A DNA stretch of 64,000 nt from Arenicellales bacterium (GCA_963663315.1 OY760176.1:69822-133821), one strand, 5' to 3'; positions 15,979-40,031 are shown, counted from the first letter of the stretch. Notes: a model not told the origin generated them from the sequence alone. Numbers and translations are program-made.

Positions 15979-16086
15979 AGTGCTAACTGATTGATTATAT
16001 TACTGTTTTTCTCTCATAATTTTATTGCCCCGTAGCAGAAACGCCCGTTTCTGTTCCCGCGGTGCTACGAAAACCGGGAGAAAATC

Positions 16087-17217
16087 ATGTCCAATACCCG
16101 TCTTACCCAGCGTCTGATCGACGCCCTCAAACCCCGCAAGAAAACCTTCGATCTCCGCGACACGGAACTCAAGGGTTTCGGTGTCCGCGTGCGCAGCTCC
16201 GGAATCAAACGCTATTTCGTGCAAAGCCAGCATGAGGGGACCCGTACCTGGCGCATCATCGGCAATGCCGCCGCAATGACCCTTGAGGAAGCGCGCTGCC
16301 GCGCACGGTCGGTCCTCGCGTCCCTACACAACGGTGAGGAGATCATTGCCGCCACGAACGAGGAGACGCGGTTCGGGGTGGTCGCGGAGAAGCTGTTCGA
16401 GGCTTGCGAGAGGCACTGGAAGGTCAGCACCAGAAAGGCCAACCGTTTTTATCTCAAGAACCAGATACTGCCCTGGTTCCGGAACATGCAGGTCGCCGGG
16501 ATCACCGAGCGGGACGTCAAGCAATGGCACGCCTCGCTCCATGCGACTCCCTTCGCCGCCGACCGCGCGGCGCCCGTGCTCAGCGTTATCCTCAGGCAGG
16601 CTGAGGTTTATGGCTATCGCCCGGAGGGTTCCAACCCCTGTGTCGGTATCAGGCGATACCGGCGGCGTGGCCGGGAACGCTTTCTCTCGCCGGAAGAAAT
16701 GCAAAGGCTCGGCGCCGTACTGAGTCGGCATGAACCGGATCATCCGCTTGAGGCCGCAACGATCCGGCTGCTACTCCTGACCGGGTGCCGCCGCAACGAA
16801 ATCCTGACACTCAAATGGTCCGACTACCGCGAGGGGCACCTGTATCTGCGCGACTCCAAGACCGGGCCGAGGACGGTCTGGCTGTCGTCCCCGGCCCGCG
16901 GGATACTGGATGGGCTTCCCCGGCGTGGCGCGTGGATATTCCCTGCACGGCGAAGGCGGGGTTTCTTTTGCCGGACCATGATCCAATATTACTGGTCGAA
17001 GGTTCGGGGCGAGGCCGGACTTGGCGATGTCCGGTTGCATGACCTCCGGCACAGCTACGCCTCGGTGGCCCTCCTGAATGGTGCGACGGTCCCCACGATT
17101 GCCAAGCTCCTCGGCCACAACGATACGGCCACGACGCTGAAATACACGCATCTCAACCAAACTGCGGTCCGCGCGGCGGTCGAGACTGTTGCTCCGATCC
17201 TCGCCGGGGAGGCGTGA
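16087..17217 (+). CDS. Tyrosine recombinase/integrase (P4-like, DUF4102-type arm-binding N-terminus), type 1 of a doublet
   Basis: 376 aa. N-terminus LKPRKKTFDLRDTELKGFGVRV. Catalytic Arg in LLLLTGCRRNE, HDLRHSYAS, and Tyr in LKYTH. Confidence 0.92.
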   Translation: MSNTRLTQRLIDALKPRKKTFDLRDTELKGFGVRVRSSGIKRYFVQSQHEGTRTWRIIGNAAAMTLEEARCRARSVLASLHNGEEIIAATNEETRFGVVAEKLFEACERHWKVSTRKANRFYLKNQILPWFRNMQVAGITERDVKQWHASLHATPFAADRAAPVLSVILRQAEVYGYRPEGSNPCVGIRRYRRRGRERFLSPEEMQRLGAVLSRHEPDHPLEAATIRLLLLTGCRRNEILTLKWSDYREGHLYLRDSKTGPRTVWLSSPARGILDGLPRRGAWIFPARRRRGFFCRTMIQYYWSKVRGEAGLGDVRLHDLRHSYASVALLNGATVPTIAKLLGHNDTATTLKYTHLNQTAVRAAVETVAPILAGEA

Positions 17218-17220
17218 ACG

Positions 17221-18105
17221 ATGCCAGAAAATACTACGAGAAGAACGACGAGAAGAATACGACTGACCGACTCCAATGCGGGCAGGTTCAGACCGGGCGA
17301 GTCCGAGTACACGGTCCGGGACACGAAGACACCCGGCCTCGGTGTCCGGATCAAGCCATCAGGTTATCGGACCTGGGTGTATCACGGCAACGCCGCCGGC
17401 AGTCCCAGGCGCCACAGTCTTGGCCCCGTCAGCCTGAAAACAGTAGAGGATGCGCGGCTCGAATGTCTTGAAATCGGCTTGAAGGAACAGATCAGTGGCG
17501 CTCCGGATGAAACCGTGAAATTGGCCGTGCCCAAATTCCGTGACTTCGTCGAGGGAGAATGGAAGACGGCGCGTTACGACCATTTTAAACCCTCTACCAG
17601 GAAAGGCGTGGACAACGCTCTGAAAACCCAACTTCTGCCGAATTTCGGGACACTGCCGCTCGACCGGCTCACGCGCTCCCGTGTCAACCGGTGGTTTGAT
17701 CAATACAGCCGCAGTGCGCCGGGCGGCGCCAATCATGCCCTCGTTATCCTGTCAGGGATCCTGAATCATGCGATAGTCTGCGGGCACATCACGATGAATC
17801 CAGCCCGGGGTGTAAGGCGGAACCCGAGACGGAAGATGACCCGGTTTCTTTCTCGGGAGGAAATCCGCCGCCTTCACGCGGTGCTTGACGCCTGCGTGGC
17901 TGAACGTCCGGTGAACGCTCCAGCGGCGGATATCATCCGTCTCCTTCTGCTCACCGGATGCCGGCGCGGCGAGATCGTGAACCTGCAATGGCGCGAGGTG
18001 GGCGAGGACATCCTGGAACTTATGGACAGCAAGACCGGTCCCCGGACAGTGTTTCTCAGCCCGAAAGCAAAAGCCGTCATAGAACGACAGCCCCGACCGG
18101 ACTGA
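17221..18105 (+). pseudogene. Tyrosine integrase, type 2 of the doublet, 3'-truncated by an IS3-family insertion
   Basis: Collinear with the intact 34918..36093 protein up to ...IERQPRP. The frame then runs into the IS terminal TGA (18103-18105). The HxxR and Tyr catalytic blocks are missing. Confidence 0.85.
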
Positions 18106-18152
18106 ATCGCCCCGGGTTTGTCGGAGGCTCCATTTCTTGAGAGGATGGAGTA

Positions 18153-18476
18153 ATGAACAGATCCAAAAGATATTCCCCGGAAATCCGGGAACGTGCAGTA
18201 CGCATGGTGTTTGAACCCCAAAGTGAGTATGAATCCGAATGGGCGGCCATGTGTTCGATATCGAGCAAGATTGGCTGTACGGCGGAGACTTTGCGTAAAT
18301 GGGTGCGACGGTCAGAGACTGATCAGGGAAAACGATCAGGAATGACGACTTCAGATCGAGAACGACTCAAGGAGTTGGAGCGCGAGAATCGAGAACTGAA
18401 GCGTGCTAACGAGATTCTGCGTAAGGCGTCCGCTTTTTTTGCCCAGGCGGAGCTCGACCGCCGACCGAAGTATTGA
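18153..18476 (+). CDS. IS3-family transposase OrfA (HTH)
   Basis: 107 aa. [13 protein letters not shown]...EWAA...[12 protein letters not shown] plus a leucine-zipper-like tail. A T7 run at 18434-18440 is a candidate -1 frameshift site. Confidence 0.9.
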
Positions 18477-38138: not shown

Positions 38139-38183
38139 AAAAAAAGGGACCGGTCCCGCGCCGAGTAGTGGCGGGGACCGGCC
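38139..38183 (-). terminator. Rho-independent terminator of the DUF2493 gene
   Basis: On the minus strand, a GC-rich stem (GGTCCCCGCC...GGCGCGGGACC) is followed by TTTTTTT (the A7 run at 38139-38145 on plus). It lies 14 nt after the stop. Confidence 0.7.
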
Positions 38184-38196
38184 CTGAAGGGTATCG

Positions 38197-39126
38197 CTAC
38201 GCGGCGGCAAGCAGGACGGGGATTCCGATCTTGCGTGCCTTATCGACTAGATTGTTGGTGATGCCAGAACCGGGAAAGGCGAGGACGCCCTTCGGCAGGA
38301 AGTTCAGCAGTACGTCGTTGCGCCGGAAGGGCGCGGCCTTGCCGTCTCTATCCCAGTTCGGCTTGCAGACGACCTGGTGGACGCCGTTCTTCTCCGCCCA
38401 GCTTGCCGCGATCTTCTCCGCACCAGGTCCGCCGCCGTGCAGCAGGACCATATCGTCGTACTTAATCTTGATGCTGTCCAGCGAGCGCCAGATGGCGGTG
38501 ACGTCGGCAAAGTCCTTGCCGCCGGTGAAGGCGACCAGGGTGCCTTCGGGCAGATGCGCGGTGGTTTCGCGGTCTTTGCGGGCGCGCAGGTAGTCGCGGG
38601 CGTCGATGGCGGCCGAGGTGAGTTTGCCGGTCTGGCTGCTGTGCGACCCGTTGCGCGGGCGCCAGGTATCGCCGGTCTCGGTGCGGTATCCCTCGGCGGC
38701 GAGGTCGCGCATGGCCTCGAAGGCATCGCGGCGGTCGCCGAGGTTCTGGACCCGGTCGGTCAGGAGTTCCAGTTCGCGCGACTTGATCTCGGAGCCGTCC
38801 TGCTCTTGGCCGAGGTCTTTCATCTCGGGCGCGATCTTGTCGATGCCGCGGTCGAGGCGCTGGACCTGGGCGTGCAGCGTATTCACGAAGCCCCAGAGCA
38901 GGCTCTCCCGTTCGTCGGCGAGTTGCGTGCCGTCCGGTGCGACGGCGCCGGCCAGGATGTGGATCGCTTCCTCGATCCCGGCAAGCGTCTCTTCCTCGTT
39001 CCAGATCTCGCGATTGTCGAACTCGTCGGGACCAGGGGTCGCGCCGAACAGGGCGGCCTGCTCGCAAGCCATTGCGGTCTGTGACGACGTTTCGGTGCTG
39101 ATGAGGTTCTGCATGATTCTCTCCAT
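38197..39126 (-). CDS. DUF2493 / SLOG-domain protein with a long helical N-terminal region (ICE/plasmid-type)
   Basis: The C-terminal block VAFTGGKDF...VLLHGGGPGAEKIAASWAEKNGV...KPNWDRDGKAAPFRRND...AFPGSGIT matches my memory of DUF2493. I prefer the start MERIMQ at 39126, which has GGAGGA upstream. Confidence 0.7.
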   Translation of the reverse strand: MERIMQNLISTETSSQTAMACEQAALFGATPGPDEFDNREIWNEEETLAGIEEAIHILAGAVAPDGTQLADERESLLWGFVNTLHAQVQRLDRGIDKIAPEMKDLGQEQDGSEIKSRELELLTDRVQNLGDRRDAFEAMRDLAAEGYRTETGDTWRPRNGSHSSQTGKLTSAAIDARDYLRARKDRETTAHLPEGTLVAFTGGKDFADVTAIWRSLDSIKIKYDDMVLLHGGGPGAEKIAASWAEKNGVHQVVCKPNWDRDGKAAPFRRNDVLLNFLPKGVLAFPGSGITNNLVDKARKIGIPVLLAAA

Positions 39127-39402
39127 TGCTATGTTGCTATCCTCCGAGGCGTGCTGCCCCGTCGTGATGACTCTTTGTTTCACGCGCTCGCAGCGGAGCC
39201 ACGATGGCCGGAATGCCTGCGCCGGGGGGATGCGCGAGTGGTGCGGGCGCAGGGAGCGGAGCGACTGAGCCACGGTCGCGTATTCAACCGGCGCTAGCCG
39301 CGCAGCGGCGTGGCATTGCGCGCTATCGCCGTAACGGAGCGCGAGCGGAGTGGAGGACCCCGCAGGGGTTGGCGCAGTGAGAACGTGTGGGACAAAGAGT
39401 CA

Positions 39403-40031
39403 TCATGACGGGGTGATTATTCTCCCACTCCCACCCCTCTCTTCTCCAGTTGCCGCGGACTTGGAGCTTGCAATAAGGGGCGAGAGTCGAGCCGCGAGGG
39501 TGTCGGCGCCGACGGCAACGAGGTCGTCATTAAAATCGGAGCGTTCGGGAACAATCACGATTGAGGGAATGCTGCGTTCCGAGCAGCGGCGCTGAAGACG
39601 GTTGGCGGCGTTCCCGCCCTCCACGTCTTTATCGCGGGCGATGACCAACAGGGCGAGATCTTGGGGTGGTTCGAAGGCGCCCAGGCTGCCCGCCGATAGA
39701 GCCGCTGCAGCATGAATGACGGGAACGGCGGTAACCAGCGATAGAACGGTTTCGATGCCCTCGCCGGCAAGCAGGGTCGCGCCGGAGGCGGTTCCGCCGA
39801 AGCGAACGGCGCGGCCGTGGACCCGCCCAAGCGCTTTGCGCGGGCGGGCGAGGTTGGCTTTTTCGGGTCGCTTGGGGTCAAGCCAGGTGCGCTGCACACC
39901 CTCGACGGCGCCATCATCGCCGGTGACGGCGGCGACCAGCGCCGGCATTCGGTGGATGCCGTCATCTCCACGATAGATGAGATCGGGATGAAACCGCAGG
40001 GCCGGGAAGCGGCTGTTCCCCGTCAGCCCAA
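39403..40031 (-). pseudogene. Toprim-domain (primase-like, ICE-type) protein, 5'-truncated by an IS
   Basis: The frame is open up to the IS boundary (...LRFHPDLIYRGDDGIHRMPALVAAVTGDDGAVEGVQRTWL...). AGEGIETVLS and ARDKD Toprim acidic motifs are present. The N-terminal zinc-finger part is missing. Confidence 0.7.

Follow-up and report, generated by a model that had tools for sequence, protein, structure and literature searches.

A GC-rich mosaic island with tandem DUF4102-type integrases and no tRNA gene at its edges in an Arenicellales bacterium

The GC-rich block and its tandem integrases

The stretch of DNA analyzed here, called the window throughout, comprises 64,000 nt of an Arenicellales bacterium (GCA_963663315.1 OY760176.1:69822-133821), with positions counted from its first letter. 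An initial annotation had described a block of about 24 kb in this window as a mosaic, horizontally acquired island, richer in GC than its flanks and without a tRNA gene at either edge. Composition, presence or absence in relatives, and tRNA scans all agreed with that description. The block is a real, foreign, composite, and broken-down island, and as an island it is ordinary. Its integration module, a tandem pair of DUF4102-type tyrosine integrases referred to as A and B, appears to be a distinct variant that is common in sponge microbiomes, where the cargo of its sister elements consists largely of anti-phage defense genes. The integrase genes of the window and the cores associated with them were as follows.

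15958-15990, plus strand: attL core, ACACCCGCTGCCG followed by CACTATGAAGTGCTAACTGA, junction at 15970/15971 (homology breaks, motif alignment, palindrome compensation)
16087-17217, plus strand: int1, intact A-type tyrosine integrase of 376 aa (Pfam Arm-DNA-bind_3, SAM-like, and Phage_integrase; R/HxxR/H/Y kept)
17221-18102, plus strand: int2', B-type integrase cut after about 294 codons by the insertion sequence (IS) IS3-A (no Phage_integrase domain in Pfam)
34918-36093, minus strand: int3, B-type integrase (Pfam)
36097-37221, minus strand: int4, A-type integrase (Pfam)
37333-37353, upstream of int4: att-like core ACACC-TCT-GCACA-GAA-TGTGC (core motif search)

The window holds two copies of the tandem pair, int1-int2' and int4-int3. 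Int1 and int4 were 56% identical, as were int2 and int3, and identity across the A and B types was about 37%. Four integrase genes and one integrase tail had been annotated; int1, int3, and int4 were intact, but int2' was truncated and without its catalytic domain, and the tail was a weak relic with a B-type match at 34294-34365 on the minus strand (tblastn E 0.012-0.013). The missing catalytic third of int2' was not found elsewhere in the window. The genes intA and intB were separated by 3-4 bp in every intact example, and the Arg/His-x-x-Arg/His/Tyr catalytic set was present in all intact A and B members. The DNA shared among int1-type elements was limited to a 2.45-kb module, from -118 nt of intA to a hairpin about 30 bp past the intB stop codon; beyond it the elements were unrelated in sequence, and their cargo starts there. 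This hairpin (e.g., TGCCGTC-N7-GACGGCA) lies right after the B integrase stop, at 34880-34917 on the minus strand of the window and at about 12314-12345 of the related locus L008 (loci other than the window carry L numbers), and in both pair types it marks precisely where the conserved module ends. A terminator is one candidate role for it; a site of recombination or of cargo exchange is another.

Tandem homologues with 33-40% identity were present on the Shewanella oneidensis MR-1 megaplasmid, on Photobacterium damselae pPHDD1, and on Vibrio, Aliivibrio, sphingomonad, and roseobacter plasmids. A bit-score matrix placed the first gene of each plasmid pair in one group with int1 and int4, and the second gene in another with int2 and int3; since A and B form separate orthologous groups across the plasmid pairs, the duplication is old. 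The sequence (C/G)ACACCCCACGC was located approximately 150-170 nt upstream of the first integrase in both plasmid pairs inspected (the Shewanella MR-1 megaplasmid and pPHDD1). Enterobacterial and Pseudomonas plasmid matches to int1 were rejected as examples of the module, with about 27% identity and mostly one match per record.

GC content in 1-kb windows was 0.43-0.56 in the flanks compared to 0.53-0.66 in 16001-40000. With 500-bp windows, the island had a GC of 0.609 +/- 0.045 (n = 48) and the flanks 0.515 +/- 0.030 (n = 76; Mann-Whitney p = 2.8e-17). At 200-bp resolution, GC climbed between 16000 and 16300 and dropped between 39900 and 40100, and the best unsupervised two-change-point segmentation of GC placed the boundaries at 16111 and 40040. 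GC at third codon positions (GC3) was 0.756 (range 0.67-0.87) in 14 island genes compared to 0.555 and 0.593 in genes of the left and right flanks, in line with the G/C-dominated third positions noticed at first reading. Tetranucleotide distance to the flank profile was approximately doubled, with values of 0.32-0.54 inside the block and 0.18-0.28 outside. Dips of GC within the block correspond to IS copies with host-like composition (GC3 0.54). The sliding-window checks that the initial annotation had suggested (GC, GC3, and tetranucleotides) thus all showed a deviating block of about 24 kb, at 16.1-40.0 kb, with a GC of 0.61 vs 0.51.

Left junction, empty site, and core motif

Orthologues of the membrane protein encoded in the left flank were found at 77-93% identity in seven metagenome-assembled genomes (MAGs) of Arenicellales or Candidatus Poriferihabitaceae (L001-L007); the host is an Arenicellales/Poriferihabitaceae sponge symbiont. 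Neither flank had a match in E. coli genomes, and the host is thus not enteric. Homology to the window stopped at about 15963-15970 in all seven MAGs, and the island was absent from each. A further genome, L020 (GCA_047517825.1), was 99.43% identical to the window over 11597-15970 and diverged exactly at 15970. Its empty site reads ...ACACCCGCTGTCG followed directly by GGTGA; ACACCCGCTGTCGGGTGAAG is its junction sequence (attB), with GGTGAAGATCGGGG as host sequence on the right. The L020 gene has its native end and stop codon (...GTCTACACCCGCTGTCG, then GGTGAAGATC) and is followed by a Na/Pi cotransporter gene, with no integrase, and none of the L020 DNA downstream of attB was present in the window. 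Because L020 lacks the block at the same base, the block is a strain-level insertion and L020 carries the empty site. Alignment with related genomes, which the initial annotation had recommended, therefore yielded an empty site with its break at the same nucleotide; the att core that was also to be sought was identified as attL, whereas no attR was found.

At attL, the final codons of the 471-aa membrane-protein gene, stop codon included, come from the element. The left edge had been placed a few tens of bp past that stop codon; it actually lies within the last codons of the gene, at 15970/15971. Homology to int1-type elements at other sites started at 15955-15980, and int1 starts 116 bp inside attL, so that the integrase adjoins the junction. 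These alignments show 15970/15971 to be a true recombination junction.

The same insertion position was occupied in L008, a locus of the same species (97.8% flank identity) from another sponge metagenome. This sister island is located at about 2.38-2.41 Mb of contig ctg820230 in ENA ERZ25071132; source sponge metagenomes also include ERZ28669063 and ERZ28763718. L008 encodes an int1 with 98% amino acid identity to that of the window and an intact 392-aa int2. Homology between L008 and the window stopped exactly at 18102, where IS3-A starts, and the L008 cargo, read over 10 kb beyond int1, was unrelated to that of the window (an RHH protein, Eco57I, XhoI- and DpnII-type restriction genes, Piwi/pAgo, and a TrwC relaxase). 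Int1 was also present at 89-93% identity in seven further loci (L009-L011, L021-L024), all in other contexts. Three follow a DEAD helicase gene, an ABC-3 gene, and a FAD-binding gene, respectively, and one lies near a DM13 gene; the others are inside a 5'-truncated UDG-like gene, an AAA_13 gene, and the TWVYHG codons of a B integrase belonging to another element. A search within 9-10 kb did not recover the displaced parts of the interrupted UDG-like (L011) and AAA_13 (L024) genes. Two of these loci have an int1-type element sitting inverted inside the B integrase gene of another copy (L022 8842-9888; L024 437-1483). L024 also holds, in the 1596-12337 region, two complete A-B pairs 8.4 kb apart, the second within the AAA_13 gene of the first one's cargo.

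Alignment of ten junctions representing eight independent sites gave the consensus ACACC(ACATC)-N6-7-CGCACY-N3-4-RGTGCTAAC. The flank terminates in ACACC (ACATC once), followed by 6-7 nt and then by the conserved element end CGCACY-N3-4-RGTGCTAACTGATTGAT. The 5-bp palindrome was intact in 50 of 50 scored cells, with compensation of C-G to T-A in three sequences. Full cores occurred only twice in the 64-kb window, each time upstream of an A integrase. The ACACC at the window's site is host sequence, as L020 has it; related species without the island read ACTCC, ACTGC, or ACGGC at this position. A search for attR or a repeated core, by blastn-short of the junctions against their own loci and by regular expression for the core, gave chance-level matches only. 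The 16-nt left-end motif was matched at least 120 and 61 times in JGI metagenomes and IMG/VR, respectively, and these were taken as chance matches because the extended motif was missing from every locus read (L025-L205).

No tRNA or tmRNA gene was detected by ARAGORN in the whole window, and no tRNA gene in 13 related loci. The sole Rfam matches at gathering score were two IS3 frameshift (ALIL) pseudoknots, and no tRNA-like signal was seen at Rfam E <= 1 at both edges and in the right third of the island. The absence of a tRNA gene at either edge, first judged by eye, was therefore upheld by ARAGORN and by Rfam at both thresholds. The integrases had been classed as P4/DUF4102-type, and the Arm-DNA-bind_3 and catalytic domains are present; the tRNA or tmRNA target expected of that type, however, was not found. 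We attribute the missing tRNA to the int1-type integrase clade, which does not use tRNA genes. The junctions suggest instead that the tandem A-B pair inserts at short ACACC-type sites within protein-coding DNA. The three outcomes that the initial annotation had named as telling against an island did not occur: GC was not flat, the block was not in conserved synteny in all relatives, and no edge had a tRNA gene.

Insertion sequences, the ICE-type module, and the origin of the block

The remaining mobile features lie in the interior and at the right edge, where the block ends in a module typical of an integrative and conjugative element (ICE).

18103-19411, plus strand: IS3-A, 1309 bp, host-like GC (GC3 0.54) (inverted repeats, ALIL pseudoknot)
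28232-31965, plus strand: IS21-family element, right end cut by IS3-B (Pfam Mu-transpos_C_2 and IstB_IS21; inverted repeats)
28820-30194, transposase on minus strand: IS256 element splitting istA (Pfam Transposase_mut; inverted repeats; 9-bp target duplication CCGGCGGAG)
31079-31963, plus strand: istB (Pfam IstB_IS21)
31966-33273, minus strand: IS3-B, inverted copy of IS3-A (100% over 1301 nt; 1-bp deletion in one inverted repeat)
33274-34891: GC-rich segment with a 295-aa open reading frame (ORF; 33276-34160, plus strand) and the integrase tail relic (34294-34365, minus strand)
34892-40031, minus strand: ICE-type end module (Pfam; 90-92.6% nt identity to L012, L013, and L015)
37553-37855, plus strand: orf100
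38197-39114, minus strand: YAcAr/DUF2493 gene (Pfam)
39403-40031, minus strand: Toprim/DUF7146 gene, N-truncated (Pfam)
40032-41493, plus strand: IS3-family element of another subgroup, host-like GC, at the GC step and truncating Toprim (Pfam, inverted repeats)

The three IS3-family copies and the IS21 element split by IS256 were present as annotated. None of the three IS3-family copies had a target-site duplication when the flanks were read directly. A simple inversion between IS3-A and IS3-B was rejected, the flanking triplets fitting neither direct nor swapped target duplications. The relics fared less well. An IS256 relic came down to only a 41-nt match at 78%, and the IS1380-like relic was not recovered, as stop-to-stop ORFs of the gaps gave no Pfam match. 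Remnants of the same IS3 (90-95% identical to the IS3-A/B ends) were observed directly after the B integrase in L023 (12562-12897); IS3 therefore recurs next to A-B modules. L019, a sibling assembly of the same strain (99.9%) with an identical arrangement of the right part, lacks approximately 163 bp within the IS3-like element (window 40339-40501); there, the transposase gene call is a single fused product of 395 aa. Either the near-identical strains truly differ by an indel, or the two assemblies differ.

The DUF2493 and Toprim genes annotated as ICE-type were both verified by Pfam, Toprim being N-truncated. Window positions 34892/34905-40013 were 90-92.6% identical at the nucleotide level to L012, L013, and L015, and the homology was limited by a point 13-26 bp past the int3 stop codon and by the IS3-like truncation of Toprim. 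Relatives of int4 (85-95%) occurred in the fixed order SSB, Toprim/DUF7146, YAcAr, divergent 100-aa ORF, intA, intB, on contigs of 0.58-5.6 Mb with flanking DNA of GC 0.59-0.69; L013 has a large SNF2-type helicase upstream of the module. The accessory module is complete in L012, L013, and L015 and partial in the window, which has lost SSB and part of Toprim. Int4-type loci have a hypervariable stretch of about 30 nt beside ACACC, and L015 and L016, otherwise 99.6% identical, diverge exactly there. Accessory genes for SSB, Toprim/DUF7146, and DUF2493 (YAcAr) are typical of proteobacterial ICEs. The SSB-Toprim-YAcAr order is likewise kept beside the integrases in L012, L013, and L015; in contrast to an ICE, the window has only a truncated 5-kb end, with no relaxase, type IV secretion, or coupling protein genes among the scanned window ORFs of at least 100 aa.

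The Toprim reading frame is open up to the IS junction at 40031/40032, with the N-terminus lost. The right edge at 40031 is thus an IS-associated truncation and not an att site. A GC step does lie at 40031, where the block had been annotated to end, but the strain-specific region extends to about 42.3-43.1 kb, and right-flank homology to L001 starts again at 43096. At least two elements have contributed pieces to the block.

Taken together, these data make it probable that the block is a decayed composite remnant of integrative elements driven by the conserved tandem A-B DUF4102-type integrase pair. Recombination of an int1-int2 element with the chromosome at a short ACACC-N6-CG core, within the final codons of the gene for the membrane protein, would have created attL at 15970/15971 and replaced the stop codon of that gene; elements of the int1 type have differing cargo right behind the B integrase. 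The terminal module of a second, 56%-related ICE-type element (Toprim, DUF2493, orf100, ACACC core, int4, int3) would have been present already or have arrived later, in inverted orientation, and may have been acquired from GC-rich bacteria of the same sponge microbiome. Host-like IS elements would then have disrupted the island, IS3-A cutting int2. The second identical IS3 and the IS3-like element would mark rearrangement or deletion junctions, for which at least two recombination or deletion events would be needed. A deletion would have taken the rest of the ICE, attR, and the neighboring host genes, and with this loss and the IS disruption the island would have become fixed in place. Signs of decay are the missing catalytic third of int2, Toprim N-terminus, attR, and host genes after attB. 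We interpret the loss of attR as a secondary deletion; the deletion was presumably IS-mediated, and the order of events is likewise a reconstruction.

Several points weigh against this history or parts of it. Neither attR nor a right-end sequence was found for any family member, so the ends and the crossover are defined from one side. Host origin of ACACC is proven at the window's own site only, through L020. The upstream flank of every int4-type pair is the same ICE module; the int4 pair may be the ICE's own end, a separate element in a conserved ICE site, or the result of tandem accretion. The window and L008 may share one ancient insertion that was lost in L020, rather than represent two gains. 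Joint action of the A and B integrases is also argued from analogy.

Other origins for the block were considered. A native chromosomal region of unusual composition, rather than an island, would be consistent with the GC-rich genes that relatives have at this position in the absence of integrases (PLP-decarboxylase block, L001 and others; Na/Pi cotransporter, L020). The chance of such an origin is negligible, given that a 99.4%-identical strain lacks the 24-kb block, that integrases and IS elements abound in it, and that part of it is 90-93% identical to DNA of unrelated GC-rich genomes. It is also highly improbable that the block is a classical P4-type island targeting a tRNA or tmRNA gene that was later deleted or degraded. 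The Arm-DNA-bind_3 (DUF4102) domain of the integrases is P4-like, but in L020 and seven related species the empty site falls at the 3' end of a protein-coding gene, without a tRNA, eight other insertion sites of close relatives are also without one, and nothing tRNA-like was seen at Rfam E <= 1, so that this origin is effectively refuted.

Two further scenarios turn on the IS3 copies. The central 12.5 kb (hsdR, an inositol cluster, and IS21 with its IS256) could have arrived as an IS3 composite transposon, independent of the integrases: IS3-A and IS3-B are inverted, 100% identical over 1301 nt, host-like in GC, and flank cargo. We consider this unlikely. The outer flanks (GAC / CCA) have no target-site duplication, direct or inversion-swapped, and neither copy has one of its own; the enclosed DNA shares the foreign composition of the integrase modules; and IS3-B abuts the istB stop codon, as if it had inserted into, or recombined at, island DNA that was already there. 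Alternatively, int1-int2 and Toprim-DUF2493-int4-int3 could be the two ends of a single ICE scrambled by an internal inversion. The TrwC relaxase in the L008 island at the same site indicates that int1-type elements can be ICE-like or like integrative and mobilizable elements, and inverted identical IS3 copies could drive inversions. Even so, int4-int3 makes up a second, complete A-B pair that shares only 56% identity with int1-int2 and has a core site of its own; the 5-kb block is 90-93% identical to modules of other, GC-rich genomes; and the IS3 flanks do not have the swapped target duplications expected from a simple inversion. A single ICE is therefore, in our judgment, a rather improbable origin.

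Known recombinase systems, cargo, and neighboring genes

DUF4102-type integrases with protein-coding targets include the dusA-specific integrases (PMC4482086) and that of SGI1, which inserts at the trmE 3' end (PMC8409611). The elements described here resemble those islands in integrase domain architecture, in having an integrase at the island edge that reads inward, in inserting at the end of a gene whose replaced codons the element then provides, and in their variable, often defensive cargo. They differ in that two paralogous integrases stand in tandem as a conserved unit, and in that there are many target genes and not one, the common core amounting only to about ACACC plus the CG by the palindrome.

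Mobile elements with several tyrosine recombinases include the SEs (intA-tfp-intB-srap), GInts (ginABCD), Tn554, and RIT elements (PMC10214605, PMC5385486). As in those, an operon of more than one tyrosine recombinase is located at the left end, the sites are few to many and not tRNA genes, long direct repeats are lacking, and small members are without conjugation genes of their own. The A-B module, in contrast, has no counterpart of tfp, srap, ginC/ginD, or tnpC, and both of its integrases are ordinary-sized and carry DUF4102, the only link being a weak NCBIfam GmtZ match (E 4e-5). The recombinases of those described elements belong to other types. Assignment to the SEs, in which one integrase is large (PMC10214605), was rejected on the basis of the 3-4 bp gap without tfp, the lack of a conserved gene after intB, and the size of both integrases (374-400 aa); int-int units carrying tmexCD proved to be SEs. 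Assignment to the GInts, which have three integrase-like genes and a small protein (PMC5385486), was rejected because each module has only two integrase genes.

XerC and XerD at dif are likewise two paralogous, catalytically complete tyrosine recombinases with a short core and a palindromic element. Xer proteins, however, are without arm-binding domains, serve in chromosome dimer resolution, and have no link to mobile cargo, and the NCBIfam scores of the int genes were far under the Xer model cutoffs. By analogy with XerC/XerD on dif, A and B may act jointly as a heteromeric recombinase on the ACACC/palindrome core. It is conceivable, and we put it forward tentatively and with reservations, that the tandem DUF4102 A-B pair and its ACACC-palindrome core constitute a distinct and widespread heteromeric module for recombination, one without a formal description so far. 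Such a module would act more like a tyrosine-recombinase transposon than a classical island, using many short ACACC sites in protein-coding DNA, including other copies of itself, and shuttling defense and metabolic cargo between distant members of the sponge microbiome. In a limited full-text literature search, no account of tandem DUF4102 integrases combined with an ACACC core was found.

Tandem-integrase islands with a 5-nt core would escape island finders built on tRNA anchors or long direct repeats. Paired arm-binding tyrosine recombinases would form a system between XerCD-type heterotetramers and single-integrase islands, and the loose target choice of the A-B pair could interest those seeking programmable integrases. 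A 5-kb module shared at 90-93% between a gammaproteobacterial symbiont of GC 0.51 and sponge-metagenome contigs with flanking DNA of GC 0.59-0.69 attests to recent gene flow between widely differing genomes in the sponge-associated community. The window's own copy is a dead, IS-ridden remnant and matters only as a pointer to the A-B integrase family.

The cargo of the block and the genes adjoining its right edge were as follows.

19660-22803, plus strand: hsdR, orphan type I restriction subunit of 1047 aa (Pfam HSDR_N, SWI2_SNF2, and T1RH-like_C)
23516-28183, plus strand: inositol cargo cluster (Pfam, NCBIfam, and PDB matches)
23516-24739, plus strand: myo-inositol-1-phosphate synthase (MIPS) gene (Pfam)
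24732-25604, plus strand: IMPase/FBPase-like phosphatase gene (Pfam)
25619-25745, plus strand: IPCT 5' fragment, 39 aa, 74% identical to the N-terminus of the IPCT gene
25800-26759, plus strand: PfkB-like ORF, matching only the C-terminal 40% of the PfkB profile (Pfam)
26819-28183, plus strand: bifunctional IPCT/DIPPS-like gene (NCBIfam NF041135 E 8.6e-81; PDB 4mnd E 1e-49)
41617-42255, minus strand: RES toxin gene (Pfam RES)
42261-42830, minus strand: Xre-type partner of RES (translation)
42943-43095, minus strand: HigA-like relic

The hsdR gene is an orphan, as annotated, with no hsdM or hsdS detected among the island ORFs by Pfam scan. The inositol-phosphate pathway genes named in the initial annotation were also recovered, and the three gene types of the di-myo-inositol-phosphate pathway (MIPS, IPCT/DIPPS-like, and phosphatase) are present. 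The NF041135 score of the IPCT/DIPPS-like gene was 272 bits, under the curated cutoff of 580, and the product could therefore be another CDP-inositol-derived compound. The IPCT fragment upstream of the partial PfkB ORF (25619-26759) is an internal scar in the cluster. Di-myo-inositol phosphate is a solute known mainly from hyperthermophiles and has been proposed for deep-sea Thaumarchaeota; here its putative gene set is carried on a mobile island in a sponge symbiont. The 295-aa ORF at 33276-34160 had no Pfam or NCBIfam family match.

Beyond the left junction, five of the seven MAGs continue with a different GC-rich block of 3-4 kb containing PLP-decarboxylase, DsbA-like, GST, and glyoxalase genes. 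The DNA after the membrane-protein gene in island-free relatives was GC-rich (0.59-0.69), lineage-variable, and without an integrase (L001 11409-15351; L020 reverse complement 4375-6945). This site looks like a long-standing hotspot or a place with leftovers of earlier islands. Within the left flank, an ADH and SDR pair (window 1688-3484) and the TRAP transporter DctPQM (4855-8073) are absent from the conspecific L008, a strain-level variation in gene content without visible mobility genes.

The region to the right of the block, 41617-43095, is strain-variable and host-like in composition, with matches of only 93 bp and 166 bp to L020. It is followed by a Cas6/Cmx6-type (type I-MYXAN) gene at 43097-43783 that is conserved in the lineage; no cas neighbors or CRISPR array were found within 10 kb of it, and L020 has an extra Cas6 fragment (11610-11996). 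Farther right (46628-49054 and downstream), the ORF listing alone suggests a spurious 742-aa antisense ORF, whereas the L019 gene calls give NIR_SIR proteins, a DsrC gene, and iron-sulfur proteins, which resemble a DsrAB-type sulfite-reductase cluster and would suggest a sulfur-oxidizing lifestyle of the host.

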